DNA of 49,155 nt from a virus (Duplodnaviria; Heunggongvirae; Uroviricota; Caudoviricetes). The notes below the pieces were generated by a model that was not told where the DNA came from, did not search any database, and was given only the letters and a program-made list of their open reading frames with translations. Shown piece by piece: positions 1,418-22,648 of this stretch. The stretch's first letter is position 1. The number at the start of each line of letters is the position of its first letter. The position numbers were made by a program, and so were the translations under genes. The stretch lies in the IMG/VR virus record IMGVR_UViG_647533161_000005, one strand, 5' to 3'.

Positions 1418-3874
1418 TTAAAAATCAGCCTGACTCGGGATCAGTTTTTGCCAGATAACTGAAACGTATTTTGCCTGGTAACGGGCGTCATCAAGTGCAT
1501 TATGGCGCTCACCTTCGAATGGAATAGCCGTTCTGGCATCGAAGTCTATGGCTTTCCCCAGCTCAACGATTGTGCGTACATCGCGATCGTTGTAGTAACG
1601 CCACGGGCAGGGGATCCCCTGCCGTTCGTATGAACGGCGCAAAATCGTGTTGTCGAAGTTGGCTCCATTTCCCCAGACCTGAACAAAAAATTCGCCGGAG
1701 TTTTCGTCGATAAATTCCCGCAATTGTAACAGTGCATCATCTAACGGGATTTCATCGGTCATAATGGCAGATTGCGCTTCGCGTGATTGCTTAAGCCACC
1801 ATTTAATGGTGTCCCGATCAATGACTCCGCCAGCAGTTTCCAGATCGATAGTCTTACTAAATTCCGGTCCCATATCTCCGGTTTGCGGATCGAAAAATAT
1901 TGCACCTATTGAGATAATCGGGGCATCTGGATTTTTTCCCATGGTTTCAAGGTCGATCATTAGATGGTCACACGTCCCGCTGGTGGATGTGCCTTTATGA
2001 TGACCGTTCACCTTAACTGAGTGATCTGTCGCCTCGCCAGTTTCACTATCGCTATCGTGATGCTGATTGCCGCCAGGGTTCTCCTTGTGTGGATGTTCAG
2101 TGCCTTCCATTTCCTCCGGATCATTTTCCTGAACTTCAACCTGATTCTCTTCATTGAATGTTTCCTGGTATGTTGCGTCGCCCATCACCGCGCCACAATC
2201 AGGGCAGTTGCCGCCGCCGGTCTGACCGCAGGCGGTGCAGATCTTTTCCGGTTCCTGTTGCACTACTGGTTCAGGTTGTTTCGTTTCTGGCTCGTTTTGT
2301 AACGCATTTGGGCTGTTTTGTTCCGCTTTCTGGCCGTTCTGTTCCGTTTCTTGCTGGTTCTGGTTCACAGAATCGCGGGTTTCCATCCCCTTGACCCATT
2401 TCGGATCATTCGGGTCGCTAATCCCTGCAACAAATTCTCCGCGAGAGGCCGCAAGCAACTTATCGGCGTCAGGCTGGCTGATATTGGCTGCCTGCATAAT
2501 TTTGTTTACTTCGTCAGCGGTAACTTTTACCTGATTAACCGGATCTATCTGTGCCTGAGTATCCAGCGATTGCGTGTCCTGGCGATGTTCAGTTGTATTC
2601 GGCTCCATTGCTTCAGTCGTTGCCTGTTCATCTGCCATTGCGTCAGACGGTTGTGATTTTTCCTCATTATTTTTTTCTTCTTCTGTTTCGCGTTCAGCAG
2701 CCAGTTCGCGGTTAACTTCTTCCAGGATATCTTTTTCCGGTGTATGTCGTGCAGCAGCGAGAGTTTCCTCGGTAGGGTTCTCGTGATCAGTTTCCGTCAA
2801 ATAGGCGTTGATATACCCCTGAAGGCGTCCCGGGTAGTGATAAAATTCAGGGTGTGCGCTTCGGATAAGTGCAAAAATAGCGGCGCGGGAATAATCCAGG
2901 ATACCCGGGATTGCGCGAAGTGCTGCGGACCATTCTTTGAACGGACTTTCTTTCTTCCGGACGACTTCTTTTGCGCGACGATAAACGCTGCCCGGAATTT
3001 CATAAATATTAAAATCCATCGGAAGTGTGGCCGCTGCAATCTCCACATCCAGCGTATCGAAGGTGTGTACTAAATTCGGATTGCGATCGGTTTTGTTCCC
3101 TCCACCGGCATTAGCACCGGAAGCCGTGCGGGTGATGCGTGAAACACGATTTCCTTTCATCCACTCTTTTGTCAGCAGACCGCGATCGGTGTAGTCAGCG
3201 CCCAGGTATGCTTCGAAAAAAGCAGTCATCAGTCCCAGGTCTGAATTACCAGGATTAGGGAAAACTTTGTCCGTGTCACGAACCAGTTTGTGGAGATCGC
3301 GAATTTCCAGCGGTTCGAGTTGCGCTGCTTTATTTGAGATGGCCAGCGCGGTAACGGCGGGAAGTTTTTCATCCTGTGCGTTATGTAATGTGCGCAGTTC
3401 GTCCCGCGAAACGTGTGTGATCGGTTTTTCGCTGCCGTGCTGTGCCAGCCATCGAACAGGCAGAATCTGACCTGAAACCGGCAGGAGCATGTTCTCCTCA
3501 ATCTCAGCCATGTTTTCGCCGTTGACGTTGGTATTGTCAGTGCTGGCTGGTTTATCCTGAACAGAGGGCGAGGGCGCGATAAGTACCATTGTGATACCAT
3601 CTTCACCGCCCTTTTCGTATCGGTTGCAGAATTCGGTATCAAACACGCCTTCCGGAGGAAGGTCATTCACAACGGGTAAATGGACGCGAACAGGTTTTTT
3701 AAAATCCTCTTTGTCAAATCCGGCATCGTCCATTGCGACAACACCGCGTGATATTGCAACCGATAATTTTTTTGCTGTGCGCCAGTAAAAACCGCCTTTA
3801 ATTCCAAGACGTTTTCTGATTTTGTCATTTTTGGCTTCGTAATATAGTGCAATTTCTTCTTTATCAGTGCTCAT
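1418..3874 (-). CDS. RecE-like exonuclease: RecE N-terminal-like region, central CxxC...CxxC zinc ribbon and acidic/Q-rich linker, C-terminal DnaQ-like (DEDDh) 3'-5' exonuclease domain
   Basis: 817-aa ORF. The N-terminal third resembles the E. coli RecE N-terminus as I recall it (NVNGENMAEIEENMLLP..., WLAQHGSEKP..., KVFPNPGNSDLGL..., GLLTKEWMKGNRVS...). The C-terminus has DEDDh-like motifs (MIDLETMG..., WGNGANFD..., HNALDDARYQA). Confidence 0.8.
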   Translation of the reverse strand: MSTDKEEIALYYEAKNDKIRKRLGIKGGFYWRTAKKLSVAISRGVVAMDDAGFDKEDFKKPVRVHLPVVNDLPPEGVFDTEFCNRYEKGGEDGITMVLIAPSPSVQDKPASTDNTNVNGENMAEIEENMLLPVSGQILPVRWLAQHGSEKPITHVSRDELRTLHNAQDEKLPAVTALAISNKAAQLEPLEIRDLHKLVRDTDKVFPNPGNSDLGLMTAFFEAYLGADYTDRGLLTKEWMKGNRVSRITRTASGANAGGGNKTDRNPNLVHTFDTLDVEIAAATLPMDFNIYEIPGSVYRRAKEVVRKKESPFKEWSAALRAIPGILDYSRAAIFALIRSAHPEFYHYPGRLQGYINAYLTETDHENPTEETLAAARHTPEKDILEEVNRELAAERETEEEKNNEEKSQPSDAMADEQATTEAMEPNTTEHRQDTQSLDTQAQIDPVNQVKVTADEVNKIMQAANISQPDADKLLAASRGEFVAGISDPNDPKWVKGMETRDSVNQNQQETEQNGQKAEQNSPNALQNEPETKQPEPVVQQEPEKICTACGQTGGGNCPDCGAVMGDATYQETFNEENQVEVQENDPEEMEGTEHPHKENPGGNQHHDSDSETGEATDHSVKVNGHHKGTSTSGTCDHLMIDLETMGKNPDAPIISIGAIFFDPQTGDMGPEFSKTIDLETAGGVIDRDTIKWWLKQSREAQSAIMTDEIPLDDALLQLREFIDENSGEFFVQVWGNGANFDNTILRRSYERQGIPCPWRYYNDRDVRTIVELGKAIDFDARTAIPFEGERHNALDDARYQAKYVSVIWQKLIPSQADF

Positions 3875-4350: not shown

Positions 4351-4908
4351 TCAACAATGAATTTTTAGCAATTGCTCCACAGTCATATTTTTAATTGCGC
4401 TCCGGTTTACAAGAGTCCATCCTTGTTTCTCCAGATAAAACCGGAAGGTATCCAGGGTGCAGACCATTGCGCCGTCAGGAACGGTTTCAGTGAATTTGAT
4501 ATTGCCGTGTTCGTCGAGACGGATAACCAGGGTGCGTCCGTCCCCGTGAATCATTTTGTCGGGAGACGGGGCGTTATTCTGGCGCAGTTCTTCCTCCATG
4601 CGATCGAACTCAGCGATGTAGGCTTCTTTGAAAGTTGCGGCTTTTTTACCTGTGAACCCCATCACCAGGAAAACGAAGCCGTTTTTGGTGATTTGGTACA
4701 TGGGGCGTTTTTCGCCTTTGGCGTCGGTGTAGGTAACGGGCGTAAAATTGCGCTCGTTAAAATCTTCAGAGCATTCTAGCGTTTCAATTTTGCGCAGAAC
4801 GTCCTTGTGCATTTTGCGGAAGAACTCTGCAACCGCAACAGACGTAGTGACAGCGCGACCATTTTCGATGGTTACGTCAGGGTGAGAAAGGGTAGGGATA
4901 GTAGCCAT
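4351..4908 (-). CDS. Rha-family phage regulatory protein
   Basis: Pattern VTIENGRAVTTSVAVAEFFRKMHKDVLRKI...KNGFVFLVMGFTGKKAATFKEAYIAEFDRME is typical of the Rha domain. Start placed at the internal ATG (4906-4908) preceded by AGAGG; the longer 4351..5205 ORF extension looks non-coding. Confidence 0.75.
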   Translation of the reverse strand: MATIPTLSHPDVTIENGRAVTTSVAVAEFFRKMHKDVLRKIETLECSEDFNERNFTPVTYTDAKGEKRPMYQITKNGFVFLVMGFTGKKAATFKEAYIAEFDRMEEELRQNNAPSPDKMIHGDGRTLVIRLDEHGNIKFTETVPDGAMVCTLDTFRFYLEKQGWTLVNRSAIKNMTVEQLLKIHC

Positions 4909-5437: not shown

Positions 5438-5735
5438 ATGGGTATTGTGGCGGGGCTGTCACTTAAGCGTATGGTCAACCTGACAACCCGGTGCATTTTC
5501 TGGAGCAATGGAGGAAACCCCAGCCATACTTACCGCCGCGCCATTTCGCGGATTGCCACAACCGGAAGCGCACGATCGAATTAAATTTAACGACGACCTA
5601 TACAGAGAGACTAACTTCGCCGGGCGCTTTCGTGTTATGCCCTGACTTTTCAGGGATATATCCTTTTTAGTAAACTGTCAGTGCCGGATTCTTATCCGTG
5701 TCCGGCGCACGCACTCTACCTCACCTGTGAATAAA

Positions 5736-6122: not shown

Positions 6123-6274
6123 CAGTCAGTGTTTCTGGTTAACCAGCGACGCGCGCCAGCTTCAGTTTGAAACGTTTTGCTTCTGGTATACGTCATCGCG
6201 GTAAACGTGCCGTCCTGGTTGGGAAACACGCCGCATACCAGAGATTCGTTGTTGCCAAGATCGATAGTATCCAT
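6122..6274 (-). CDS. ydfA: YdfA-like small protein (DUF1391 family)
   Basis: MDTIDLGNNESLVCGVFPNQDGTFTAMTYTRSKTFQTEAGARRWLTRNTD closely matches my recollection of K-12 YdfA (51 aa). Start taken at the internal Met. Confidence 0.7.
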   Translation of the reverse strand: MDTIDLGNNESLVCGVFPNQDGTFTAMTYTRSKTFQTEAGARRWLTRNTD

Positions 6275-18228: not shown

Positions 18229-18255
18229 AGCCCCTCTCCGGAGGGGCTGTTTATA
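18229..18255. terminator. Hairpin terminator downstream of the minus-strand gene 18284..18619
   Basis: Hairpin agcccctc-tccg-gaggggct. Confidence 0.5.
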
Positions 18256-18283
18256 TTGATTTTGTCAGATGTGAGTAAACTCC

Positions 18284-18619
18284 TTATGGACTTTGTTGTT
18301 TTAGCCCATAAGGACATATTTGCAGAGTGCAACGGTTATTAAAGCATTCATTCAATACGTTATCTGTATTTGTAGGGCATTCCTGGCTGTTTTTGATTAA
18401 ATTCCAGAATGTTTTATTGAATGGTACTACGTTGTAAATGGTTACAGGTAGCACTTTGTTATTGAGCATGATACCTGTGTGAGTCAGTGTAAATATACTT
18501 TCAGGAGGTAAGAAAGCATCCGATTGATACCAGATTATTAATTTTATTTTACTCCATATGACTGAAAAAGATATTCCGCATGATGGCTGGATAACTGTAT
18601 CAATCACAATCCACTTCAT
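18284..18619 (-). CDS. Hypothetical protein encoded antisense to the late operon in an AT-rich island
   Basis: 111-aa ORF with hydrophobic N-terminus ([30 protein letters not shown]), an AT-rich upstream region (18620..18860) and a hairpin just past its stop. Confidence 0.5.
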
Positions 18620-18879
18620 TTAGTTTCCTTGTTTATGCCTTGCTGGTGATGTTCTGAAAAGTATAAATGATATTTTTGATTGTAAACCATAGAGCAGAAT
18701 TATTTTTCTGATGTTGTTTATTGTTTATTTAAATGCAGGGTGGTTTATATCTCGTCTTGTAGTTTATCCATGCATATCTGCTTGATGATGAGGTTTTTAT
18801 TTAAGGTATGGTTTTGTGTTTTTTCTGTATTACATGTCAGGTATTTTAAAGAATCATTTTTCAGATGGTGGAAAGAACC

Positions 18880-19068
18880 ATGGCATTTAAACACTATGAT
18901 GTTGTCAGGGCGGCGTCGCCGTCAGATCTTGCGGAAAAGCTGACACATAAACTGAAAGAGGGCTGGCAGCCGTTTGGTAGTCCGGTGGCCATAACCCCTT
19001 ATACCCTGATGCAGGCGATTGCAGCAGAAGGTGATGTGGTGGTCAGTGGTGCAACTGAGCCGGAGTGA
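18880..19068 (+). CDS. DUF1737-like small protein commonly found upstream of holins
   Basis: MAFKHYDVVRAASPSDLAEKLTHKLKEGWQPFGSPVAI... is typical of this family. Confidence 0.65.
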   Translation: MAFKHYDVVRAASPSDLAEKLTHKLKEGWQPFGSPVAITPYTLMQAIAAEGDVVVSGATEPE

Positions 19069-19375
19069 TACTACGTCATCGTACTGGCCCGGCATTCCAG
19101 GCCATAAAAGACGGTCTGGCAGTGGGACTAAATGCACTGACGCTGACGGATATTACCAAAAATGCAACGTATGGCGTTGAGATAGAAAGTCTGGTGCTGG
19201 AGATAAATGCACCGGCATCATCATAAAAAGTGAGCCAGTCAAATGGAAGGTATCGTTAAACTCACCGGTAGTGTCAGTGGGTCGTCTGAGACGCCTGCAT
19301 GAGTTATCAGAGCCATCAGTACTTAACTGGTGGCTTTTTTATTGTTGTCAGCTTCCGGATAACGGGAGACGGGGT

Positions 19376-19591
19376 ATGTACCAGATGGAAAAAATCACAA
19401 CAGGTGTGTCATACACCACGTCAGCGGTGGGAACGGGCTACTGGTTCCTGCAGTTGCTGGACAGGGTTTCCCCGTCTCAGTGGGCGGCAATAGGCGTGCT
19501 GGGGAGTCTGCTGTTTGGGCTGCTGACATATCTGACTAACCTGTATTTCAAAATCAAAGAGGACCGGCGTAAGGCGGCGCGGGGAGAGTAA
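19376..19591 (+). CDS. S: Class II holin, phage 21 S-like (pinholin) with dual-start motif
   Basis: [71 protein letters not shown] resembles S21 as I recall it; Met1 and Met4 give 71/68-aa forms. Confidence 0.85.
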
Positions 19592-19595
19592 AGTG

Positions 19596-20486
19596 ATGAA
19601 TAAAAAATATGAACTGGTTGTTAAGGGGATAAATAATTACGGGGATAAGGTTACTGTTACTGTGAAGTCGGAAGGTGACGGGCAAGCGTCGCTGTTGTTG
19701 CCAGATGTGGCGATTAGTCTTGACCGTACTGAAGGTGCCACGCTGGAGTTTTACGAAGCTGAGGCGAAAAAGCAGGCGAAGCAGTTTTTCATGGATGTTG
19801 CTGCCGGGTTATGTGAATGGAACGAACCGTTGCCGGAAAAGCGCCCCGTAATTTTAGAGGCGCAGGATGTGTTGATAACCTACAAAGGAAAGCTACCGGG
19901 AAGAATTACTTGTTCTCTGAAGATGCCGCCGTCAACACTGCGGTCAGAAAAAGATGATGTTGAATCACGTATTGAAAAACTGGAGAGCTACGTCGTTGAG
20001 CTGAATAAGAAATGGTCGATATTGGTGCCTTCTGGCGATGAAAAGCAGTTTGCTGCGTTTGACGATTATTGTCGGAAAGTGATGAGCAGAAATCTCGCAG
20101 AGTGTTTCAGTATTCATAATGATAATTTCAGTGACCCGGAATGGGAGTGTAACCGGCCATCCTTTGTTGTATCCGGTGATGCTGGGAAAATAACCATCTC
20201 AGAAAATGGGAAAGTAACACCTCCATCGCACCAGCACAGTGAGGAGCTCATTGAATTTGCCATTGATTACCTGAAGAACAATAAAAAGCAGGGGCTGATG
20301 AAGCGCGTTGGCCGTTGCATGGGATATCTTCAGGTAGCCGCTGAGATTGAAGCGCTGGCCAGTGGTGCTGATAAGGATGCAATTGTGCGGGAGGCTCTTC
20401 TTCGTGATTTTAATACTCCACCCTTTAAAAAAGGGCCGGCTTACTGGCTTCATCCGGGGCTGACTTATCTTAAAGTGCGTATTTAG
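19596..20486 (+). CDS. Hypothetical protein inserted between holin and endolysin
   Basis: 296-aa ORF with GGGGAGAG upstream of the ATG; visibly lower GC than its neighbours; no recognisable family. Confidence 0.65.
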   Translation: MNKKYELVVKGINNYGDKVTVTVKSEGDGQASLLLPDVAISLDRTEGATLEFYEAEAKKQAKQFFMDVAAGLCEWNEPLPEKRPVILEAQDVLITYKGKLPGRITCSLKMPPSTLRSEKDDVESRIEKLESYVVELNKKWSILVPSGDEKQFAAFDDYCRKVMSRNLAECFSIHNDNFSDPEWECNRPSFVVSGDAGKITISENGKVTPPSHQHSEELIEFAIDYLKNNKKQGLMKRVGRCMGYLQVAAEIEALASGADKDAIVREALLRDFNTPPFKKGPAYWLHPGLTYLKVRI

Positions 20487-20522
20487 TGGGCCAGGGACAG
20501 CGGCTGAATATTTAATATATCC

Positions 20523-21056
20523 ATGAACACCAAAATCAAATACGGCCTGTCGGCTGCCGTTCTGGCGCTGATTGCCGCTGGTGCGCCTGCGCCTGACATT
20601 CTCGACCAGTTTCTGGATGAAAAGGAAGGCAACCACACCACGGCATACCGTGATGGTGCAGGTATCTGGACCATCTGCCGTGGTGCCATCATGGTGGATG
20701 GCAAACCTGTCGTTCCGGGCATGAAGTTGTCGAAGGAAAAATGCGACCAGGTTAACGCCATTGAGCGTGATAAAGCGCTGGCGTGGGTGGAGAAAAACAT
20801 CAGAGTGCCGCTGACCGAACCCCAGAAAGCGGGGATCGCGTCATTCTGTCCGTACAACATTGGTCCCGGTAAGTGTTTCCCGTCGACGTTTTACAGACGA
20901 ATTAATGCTGGTGATCGAAAAGGTGCCTGCGAAGCGATTCGCTGGTGGATTAAGGACGGTGGCAGAGACTGCCGTATTCGTTCAAACAACTGTTACGGTC
21001 AGGTATCCCGTCGTGACCAGGAGAGCGCGCTGGCGTGCTGGGGTATCGACAGATAA
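20523..21056 (+). CDS. R: SAR endolysin (phage 21 R-like lysozyme)
   Basis: N-terminal signal-anchor-release segment (LSAAVLALIAAGAPA) followed by a lysozyme region with the E...D...T-like catalytic region (EGNHTTAYRDGAGIWTICRG), similar to R21. Confidence 0.85.
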   Translation: MNTKIKYGLSAAVLALIAAGAPAPDILDQFLDEKEGNHTTAYRDGAGIWTICRGAIMVDGKPVVPGMKLSKEKCDQVNAIERDKALAWVEKNIRVPLTEPQKAGIASFCPYNIGPGKCFPSTFYRRINAGDRKGACEAIRWWIKDGGRDCRIRSNNCYGQVSRRDQESALACWGIDR

Positions 21057-21212
21057 GCAGAATATTTTGCTGAAAAATGAGGAATGGCCACGCGGGCGGA
21101 TAACACGAAATCCTGCGAACTGGCGAAACGTAAGTGAATAAAAGTAAAAACCCCGTTTGTTGGCACCAAGCGAGGTTTTGTGTTTCTGACCTTGAGTAAG
21201 GCAAGGGAGAAC

Positions 21213-21395
21213 ATGGCGAAGTGTAAACGAATTCTGTTGAGGTTGACTATGAAAAATGGCCTTGAACTGAAAGCGCCTGTAACTGATGACATCAGCAGAG
21301 CACTGGCTTTTGCCATTAAGTGGGTGGCGGTCGGTGTTGCTGTGTCCCCGATGCTGTATGGGCTGGCAAAACTGGTCATTGCGTTGAAATCGTGA
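21213..21395 (+). CDS. Small membrane protein
   Basis: 60-aa ORF with AAGGGAGA upstream and a hydrophobic C-terminal half. Confidence 0.4.
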
Positions 21396-21409: not shown

Positions 21410-21541
21410 ATGTCAGACAAACTCATAACGCTGGCGAAGATCCTCTGTGTAATTGTCGGCATTTCATTTTCACTAATGCTGGTTGCTCTTTTTCTTTCCA
21501 TGGCCTGGATGATGTTGTCTTCGTCGGGGTTGCTGGGGTGA
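21410..21541 (+). CDS. Small membrane protein
   Basis: 43-aa [46 protein letters not shown] with a strong AAGGGAGGA 7 nt upstream. Confidence 0.5.
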
Positions 21542-22011
21542 ACATAAACCGAATGCTTTCCGCGTTTATCGTTATTCTGCTGGTGGCCTGTGGTGCGCTG
21601 TGGATGGCAACAGACCATTACCGTGATAACGCGATTACCTACAAAGCGCAGCGCGATAACAAAGCCAGTGAACTGAAGCTGGCGAACGCAACCATTACTG
21701 ATATGCAGGTGCGCCAGCGCGATGTTGCTGCGCTCGATGCAAAATACTCGAGGGAATTAGCCGATGCGAGAGCTGAAAATGAAACTCTTCGCGCTGACGT
21801 TGCCGCTGGTCGTAAGCGCCTGCGGATCAACGCCACCTGTCCAGGCTCCGTGCGTGAAGCCCCCACCACCTCCGGCGTGGATAATGCAACCGGCCCCCAA
21901 CTGGCAGACACCGTTACACGGGATTATTTCACCCTCAGAGAGCGGCTGATGACGATGCACAAGCAACTGGAAGGGGCACAGGACTATATCCGCACTCAGT
22001 GCCTGAAATAA
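21538..22011 (+). CDS. Rz: Rz i-spanin
   Basis: Matches lambda Rz as I recall it ([14 protein letters not shown]...[23 protein letters not shown]...[17 protein letters not shown]). Start is either GTG 21538 or ATG 21553. Confidence 0.85.
21764..21949 (+). CDS. Rz1: Rz1 o-spanin lipoprotein, embedded in the +1 frame of Rz
   Basis: [10 protein letters not shown]...[30 protein letters not shown] matches lambda Rz1. Confidence 0.85.
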
Positions 22012-22321
22012 GTTTTGTTGATGCGCCGTATCGTCGCTATATTCCCTCATTAACAGAGACCGCAGCCCGACAGGGAGACTCCTCTGCGCGAGTGTGCGGG
22101 GATAATTAAAAACGATGCACACCGGGTTTTTACCGCGTTAATGATTCGCGGGTTTATCCCGGTGCGATGGTGGAAGAAACAGGAAGCTGTATTACAGAAA
22201 GTGCTACTACTGTATCCCGATGCGATGTATGTAATGTGAGTCAGATAATGGCACAGGATGTGGTGATGTGGCAGTCTGGAACACAGGATATATTGTCAGA
22301 ATAAGACCCGTAGGAATAAAA

Positions 22322-22648
22322 ATGAAAAGACGCCTTTTACTACTTTTTCTGTTATCTGTCCTGGCAGTGGGATGCTCGCAGCAAAAAGCTGATGAGCCCC
22401 GGCAATTAGTGACGGTGTATCCACGATATCCGGAATATGCTGCAGCAAATTATATCAAGGGGCTGGTTGAGGTTAAGTTCGATATTGGTGCTGATGGGAC
22501 TGTGACACGGATCGTTTTTCTCCGCTCAGAGCCTCATAATTTGTTTCGTGATGAAGTGGTGAAGGCCATGGCGAAATGGCGATTTGAAAAGAATCGCCCC
22601 TGTCAGGGAGTGAAGAGACAATTTATCTTTACGCCGTCACGTCCTTGA
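22322..22648 (+). CDS. Lipoprotein with TonB C-terminal-like region
   Basis: MKRRLLLLFLLSVLAVGCSQ has a lipobox; the body has a TonB-C-like pattern (YPRYPEYAAANYIKGLVEVKFDIGADGTVTRIV...AMAKWRF). Confidence 0.6.
   Translation: MKRRLLLLFLLSVLAVGCSQQKADEPRQLVTVYPRYPEYAAANYIKGLVEVKFDIGADGTVTRIVFLRSEPHNLFRDEVVKAMAKWRFEKNRPCQGVKRQFIFTPSRP

Follow-up and report, generated by a model that had tools for sequence, protein, structure and literature searches.

A long-form YdfR (DUF1327) family gene between the holin and endolysin genes of a temperate phage

What is a gene of 296 codons doing between the holin and the endolysin of a tailed phage, and does its position among the lysis genes tell us its function? 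The window analyzed here, a stretch of 49,155 nucleotides from a virus of the Caudoviricetes (IMG/VR record IMGVR_UViG_647533161_000005), contains such a gene. A sequence-only reading had described it as unrecognised, as an insertion into a cassette that normally runs from S to R without an intervening gene, and as a candidate for lysis timing, superinfection exclusion or abortive infection. The gene and its surroundings are as follows (window coordinates).

19376 to 19591, plus strand: S21-type class II holin (pinholin type), 71 codons with a dual start (M1/M4)
19583 to 19586, plus strand: GGAG Shine-Dalgarno motif of the 296-aa gene, within the coding end of the holin
19596 to 20486, plus strand: long-form YdfR-family gene, 296 aa, soluble and modular (ORF list, phrog_1085, RefSeq name, dN/dS)
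20523 to 21056, plus strand: endolysin R of the T4-lysozyme family (Pfam Phage_lysozyme, E 2.4e-24)
21538 to 22011, plus strand: Rz spanin (Pfam Phage_lysis, E 2e-47; ORF list)
21764 to 21949, plus strand: Rz1, embedded in Rz and closing the lysis cassette (ORF list)

The reading frame is intact and starts with ATG, with an in-frame GTG one codon upstream (ORF list); it begins 4 nt past the holin stop and ends 36 nt short of the Phage_lysozyme gene. The holin is recognised by Pfam Phage_holin_2_1 (E 7.2e-33) and by phrog_9876 and phrog_20 (annotated 'holin'), and its 3' end bears the ribosome binding site of the 296-aa gene: GGAG lies 9 nt ahead of the ATG, where the window reads GGGGAGAGTAAAGTGATG. 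With 46.2% GC the gene is poorer than the holin (54.2%), R (54.5%) and the window as a whole (50.8%). No transmembrane segment is found in the protein (the highest 19-residue Kyte-Doolittle mean is 0.75); it lacks the transmembrane segment or signal sequence of membrane lysis factors such as holins and antiholins, and the AF2 model consists of soluble strand-plus-helix (alpha/beta) domains. The Q antiterminator gene is located upstream and no promoter-like site for the gene is found on the plus strand. On the low GC, the ribosome binding site, the missing membrane segment and the co-expression with the late operon, the sequence-only reading is thus borne out. A weak terminator-like hairpin occurs in the last codons of the gene (20445-20462, plus strand), in a scan that returned 11 sites in the region against 5.4 expected by chance, and might itself be a chance match.

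A number of observations concern the neighbors. The Gly/Ala-rich and hydrophobic N-terminus of the endolysin suggests that it is of the SAR type, and at its start (window 20487-20525, ATATATCCATG) a Shine-Dalgarno motif is not obvious. Two small frames between the endolysin and Rz (21180-21395 and 21410-21541, both plus strand) match phrog_1115 and phrog_4906, both annotated 'unknown function'; both have hydrophobic stretches and they may be small membrane proteins of the lysis cassette. Immediately 5' of the holin is a 67-aa frame with DUF1737 (E 4e-17), marked as truncated in RefSeq, followed by a 53-aa frame (window 18865-19226). Between Q and the lysis cassette there is an island of 31-33% GC (window 18250-18850) with a minus-strand frame (18284-18619), named anti-adapter IraM in RefSeq, and the whole resembles a moron at the usual Q-S cargo site. 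On the 3' side of Rz/Rz1, a small gene for a 'TonB family protein' with a lipoprotein-like N-terminus (22268-22648, plus strand) occupies the position that bor has in lambda and in phage 86.

The gene turns out to belong to a family that is already catalogued. Residues 1-100 match Pfam DUF1327 (PF07041) with 137.9 bits, against a gathering cut-off of 25 bits (E 1.3e-40, profile positions 1-88 of 93), and the complete protein matches phrog_1085 from end to end (residues 1-296 on profile positions 1-296 of 296, E 7.6e-190), a group annotated as 'unknown function'. The same or near-identical proteins of 296 aa carry the name 'YdfR family protein' in RefSeq and nr. YdfR of E. coli K-12 (b1555, P76160), located in the cryptic prophage Qin, has its Pfam family in common with the window protein and is 47% identical to it over 78 aligned positions (residues 1-74 of each, E 6e-21). 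The description of the gene as unrecognised and without motif can consequently not be maintained, and the profile and structure search that had been proposed as a check leads to an existing Pfam and PHROG family, with no match among PDB profiles or in a fold search. The single-domain size of about 100-115 aa that goes with YdfR does not fit the window protein, which has 296 aa and three further modules. Overall, we are almost certain that the gene is a long-form member of the YdfR/DUF1327 family: a soluble accessory of the late operon, placed in the slot between S and R, served by a ribosome binding site in the end of the holin and built from separable modules. Four modules can be delineated.

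19596 to 19820, plus strand: module A, aa 1-75, DUF1327 core (PF07041, alignment to K-12 YdfR, AF2)
19821 to 19949, plus strand: module B, aa 76-118, linker EPLPEKRPVILEAQDVLITYKGKLPGRITCSLKMPPSTLRSEK (alignments; low pLDDT)
19950 to 20147, plus strand: module C, aa 119-184, predicted helical or coiled-coil region (AF2, alignments)
20148 to 20483, plus strand: module D, aa 185-296, conserved orphan C-domain (alignments, dN/dS, pLDDT 75-93)

When AF2 was given nothing but close homologues, the model was poor (pLDDT 50.6). A second run to which the Salmonella homologues were added gave a mean pLDDT of 65.3, with two confident domains and a low-scoring middle part, which is of medium quality overall. 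Module A is predicted as three strands and a long helix (pLDDT about 70-90) and, judging from the alignment, shares homology with the region sufficient for RNase E binding in K-12 YdfR. Short YdfR forms terminate within module B (for example the short form at locus L006). For module C the model places helices at 112-143 and 149-175 with low to medium confidence, and the alignments show this module replaced, lengthened or deleted across alleles. Module D is predicted as three strands and three helices; eleven of its residues are invariant (L226, G239, R240, L245, Q246, A248, P276, K278, W284, P287 and Y291), and it is also found as a free-standing gene. An internal duplication relating the N- and C-domain, considered in view of their common strands-then-helix layout, was rejected (hhalign probability 0.3%).

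Across E. coli prophages the slot holds A+B, A+B+C+D, A+B+D, C+D, D with a different N-terminal part, or nothing at all. Along the gene, blocks with a dS of 0 adjoin blocks with a dS above 1, which is the signature of mosaic recombination. The N-domain has a dN/dS of 0.34 when deep alleles are compared and of 0.6-0.8 for close ones; for the C-domain it is 0.19-0.37 against divergent alleles, showing that the C-domain evolves under purifying selection.

These numbers bear directly on the idea that the gene is merely a decaying, chimeric remnant, which is what the PGAP annotation implies: the identical and intact gene in NZ_CP030768 is called a pseudogene 'missing C-terminus'. Variants that are truncated or disrupted by insertions are, moreover, numerous. 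Nonetheless, 496 complete E. coli genomes have the frame intact (80% or more of its length), the C-domain has the low dN/dS given above, Salmonella retains all parts of the architecture at 28% identity, and the protein of 296 aa is present in nr as a normal 'YdfR family protein'. The conservation data largely refute the remnant reading, which we regard as very improbable, and the gene is not a chance frame. The pseudogene call is better seen as an annotation artefact, because the gene is conserved. It covers only the first 112 codons (L004:20001-20336, corresponding to window 19596-19931), recurs in RefSeq hits H170-H174, and leaves the C-terminal two thirds of the gene unannotated in several complete genomes. 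Among the long copies in IMG/VR two carry insertions, presumably mobile elements: one of about 2.6 kb in L066 (coiled-coil module at 489-680, C-domain at 3297-3608) and one of about 0.75 kb in L084, where the C-domain is split (4469-4708 and 5462-5581).

How often is the slot occupied? Some part of the gene is found at 6,175 places in 2,703 of the 5,426 complete E. coli genomes, which is about half, and at least 80% of it in 496. The C-domain alone as query finds 952 places in 777 of these genomes, and the S21-type holin 8,950 places in 2,466. The collection of 50,697 phage records includes 434 with an S21-type holin; the DUF1327 N-domain is present in 100 records and the C-domain in 5. The family is small and narrow, with 108 profile matches among 1.84 billion representative proteins; in 185,579 species-representative genomes the C-domain is seen at 3 loci only, all in Escherichia or Shigella. 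The comparison of cassettes that had been suggested as a check on sporadic insertion thereby gives a clear outcome: the slot is a defined one, the gene occupies it sporadically, and it is no core component of S21-type cassettes. No family with an established role was matched either, so that neither of the two outcomes that the sequence-only reading had set against its own proposal is seen. Its premise that S and R normally adjoin is wrong, however. The slot is filled in K-12 Qin, in a Shiga-toxin-type prophage of E. coli EDL933 (a 114-aa form), in Stx2_95 (a 329-aa form) and in phage 86, and H-19B has an unannotated gap of 400 nt between S and R. In 933W-type cassettes ydfR is absent and S and R lie 4 nt apart.

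The empty sites suggest what the insertion may do to the neighboring endolysin gene. In 933W-type cassettes R uses the motif GGGGAGAG in the end of S, and the same motif serves ydfR in the window; the empty site at L095 reads GGGGAGAGTAAGCTGATG(R). Insertion of ydfR may lower or re-couple the translation of the endolysin. It might be argued that the gene is a regulator of lysis, which sets its timing via the pinholin or endolysin, or in cis by separating R from the ribosome binding site in S and lowering endolysin synthesis. The exact position at the S/R junction speaks for this, as do the capture of the Shine-Dalgarno motif that serves R in empty-site cassettes, leaving R without an obvious one, and the K-12 chain of S, 4 nt, ydfR and an ATGA overlap with R, which suggests coupled translation. 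Every homologue adjoins lysis genes, and T4 RIII, a soluble antiholin, provides a precedent for a cytoplasmic lysis regulator. Against it stand the missing membrane segment and the fact that about three quarters of the phage records with an S21-type holin do without the gene, including 933W-type phages that lyse normally. Moreover, N-only and C-only forms occur in the same slot, and homologues accompany three unrelated sets of holin and endolysin genes, where they lie upstream of the holin and are uncoupled from it. We consider a regulator of lysis rather improbable.

The latter argument depends on relatives beyond E. coli. Homologues in prophages of Salmonella and other enterobacteria (for example P0148, P0153, P0167 and P0280) either have the N-domain, helical part and C-domain of the window protein, at 26-31% identity, or consist of the C-domain only. 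Their C-domains have the same invariant residues and all are late-operon genes; unlike the window protein, they remain below the Pfam threshold for DUF1327. The Salmonella prophage homologue is located between Q and an HP1-type holin and lysozyme, and not between holin and endolysin as in the window. A distant enterobacterial prophage has a homologue consisting of the C-domain only, with Q on one side and a cassette of holin_8, holin_3_7 and GH19 genes on the other. These positions on the Q side indicate that the conserved feature is the head of the late operon rather than a particular holin or endolysin, and the three unrelated lysis cassettes beside the homologues weaken a holin-specific regulatory role. 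Of the roles proposed from the sequence, lysis timing has lost ground in this way. The retention of N-domain, coiled coil and C-domain at 28% identity in Salmonella further suggests that the long form is probably the ancestral architecture and K-12 YdfR a shortened version of it.

On the 3' side of many C-domain genes we observe a convergent gene of about 105 aa that belongs to phrog_1853 and has no Pfam match.

L001:4214-4528, L005:2861-3181, L010:4832-5149 and L136:5412-5735, minus strand: phrog_1853 partner in E. coli, Salmonella and distant prophage loci

This partner adjoins a C-domain gene in 36 of the 39 IMG/VR loci in which it is found and is alone in the S-R slot in the other 3; all four phage records with the partner also have the C-domain gene. 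Conversely, 25 of the 80 IMG/VR loci with a C-domain contain the partner and 55 are partner-less. It is 46-48% identical in Salmonella and about 25% in the distant enterobacterial prophage (hhalign probability 95.6%). The window lacks it, as there are only 36 nt between the gene and R. In phage 86 nothing convincing was found in a search for a promoter of the partner gene. Enterobacterial lambdoid prophages whose lysis cassettes are of three unrelated types retain the pair, with 25-30% identity, where the late operon begins. A speculative proposal, to which we give a low probability, is that the conserved unit is not DUF1327 at all but the orphan C-domain with its phrog_1853 partner, a hitherto undescribed two-gene system of a late effector and a partner for the lysogenic phase. 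If true, the role of the pair could be in phage-phage conflict or in control of the lysis switch, and the window gene would be a partner-less version of the effector that docks on RNase E.

A related reading takes the C-domain protein as the late effector and phrog_1853 as the lysogen-expressed component of a module for conflict between phages, either toxin and antidote or defence and self-immunity, the window containing a partner-less version fused to DUF1327. The close linkage just described fits such a module, as does conservation of the pair in Salmonella and in the distant prophage with unrelated lysis genes; the N-domain dN/dS of 0.6-0.8 between close alleles points the same way, and low GC and a sporadic, mosaic distribution are signs of accessory genes in general. 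The absence of the partner from the window and from 55 of the 80 C-domain loci would be odd for a toxin in need of an antidote. An own promoter was not detected, K-12 ydfR is silent during normal growth and harmless when overproduced (PMC13232886), and PADLOC gives no significant match. We judge a conflict module unlikely, and the defence and exclusion roles proposed from the sequence remain without support from PADLOC.

Direct searches for a function return little. NCBIfam gives no match of the protein better than E 0.2, and the defence search against PADLOC-DB 2.0 yields nothing significant (best PbeC, E 0.018, 11.3 bits, over a partial stretch). Pfam searched with the C-domain alignment at E <= 10 gives only scattered single-member noise, and PDB sequence profiles give nothing below E 0.04 for either the whole protein or the C-domain. 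A fold search with both domains found no match, nor any resemblance to a known RNA-binding or RNase-regulator fold.

The best lead, and the only experimental one, is provided by the K-12 homologue, a hit in the two-hybrid screen of Göpel et al. (2026; PMC13232886). Residues 1-72 of K-12 YdfR are enough to give a signal with RNase E (Rne) and RNase G (Rng) in the bacterial two-hybrid assay, and Strep-YdfR co-purifies Rne(1-598), the N-terminal half of RNase E, together with DNase-resistant nucleic acid; this was a co-purification from lysate with no nuclease treatment, and the contact with RNase E may be bridged by RNA (PMC13232886). Overproduction altered few transcripts and left growth unaffected, and the gene is silent under normal growth conditions (PMC13232886). 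All of these data concern a homologue of 103 aa that has the N-domain only, to which the window protein is linked by the 47% identity of the N-domain. Two other phenotypes were considered as clues and set aside. PMC13232886 cites an 'envelope integrity' phenotype for a ydfR mutant, which we were unable to find in the main text of PMC3879167; polarity of the deletion cassette on the SAR lysozyme gene downstream may account for it. A threefold rise in streptomycin MIC upon ydfR overexpression (PMC12924614) is too weak an effect to interpret.

Binding of RNase E and RNA by K-12 YdfR points to a role beyond the three that had been proposed from the sequence, and on this basis we weakly favour a late factor that acts on host RNA decay. 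In this mechanism, of which we infer all consequences for the phage, Q would turn on late transcription and a cytoplasmic protein would be made. Like the K-12 homologue, its N-domain would dock on RNA, on host RNase E (at the catalytic N-terminal half) or on both, and the helical middle part might let the protein oligomerise. The C-domain would be an independent effector or adaptor, which elsewhere works with or is controlled by the convergent partner of about 105 aa. The net outcome would be that RNA decays differently towards the end of the lytic cycle, for instance because the long late transcript is protected or RNase E is redirected, and the protein would be no part of the lysis machinery itself. 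We put this forward tentatively, as possible though clearly short of an even chance; it is weakened by the limits of the K-12 data given above, by the missing resemblance of either domain to an RNA-binding or RNase-regulator fold, by the medium confidence of the AF2 model and by the fact that the C-domain, the most conserved part of the protein, is unexplained by the RNase E data. The probability that is left beyond the favoured mechanism and its rivals goes to something else.

How much of this is new? The gene belongs to a catalogued family, of which it is an ordinary representative; the slot is a common one for that family, and the cassette architecture is not unusual. The new elements are modest: a modular and probably ancestral long form, an orphan C-domain, a conserved convergent partner, and the mis-annotation of long forms. 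Nonetheless, about half of the complete E. coli genomes and many Shiga-toxin phages contain a member of the family, and its place beside stx and the lysis genes is at the end of the late operon where expression is strongest. The family is also experimentally approachable, given that the ancestral architecture was apparently longer, with the K-12 'type' protein representing just its N-terminal third, that long forms are often wrongly called pseudogenes, and that the C-domain travels with a conserved partner. If the link with RNase E is true, a late gene of a temperate phage would be manipulating host RNA decay.

Finally, the window gene can be placed beside the systems that it resembles most. 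In K-12 Qin the order is essQ (holin), ydfR, rrrQ (lysozyme) and rzpQ, so that ydfR occupies the same slot and starts at the same 4 nt after the holin stop. K-12 YdfR has 103 aa, namely the N-domain and a short helix, whereas the window protein continues into a linker, a coiled coil and a conserved C-domain of 112 aa. Closer in size is gp05 of the Stx2-converting phage 86 (YP_794052.1, 'YdfR family protein', 268 aa), which lies in the same S-R slot and has the N-domain, linker and C-domain in common with the window protein. It differs in lacking the coiled-coil module and in having a convergent partner, gp06 (phrog_1853), on its 3' side; the window has no such gene. Further away, T4 Srd, T7 gp0.7 and phiKZ Dip are phage-encoded modulators of RNase E; the comparison concerns likeness of function only and not family membership, as a relationship in sequence or fold was not found. 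They are early or middle genes of virulent phages, whereas the window gene is a late gene of a temperate phage. Should the favoured mechanism hold, its product would be like them in binding RNase E and altering RNA decay.
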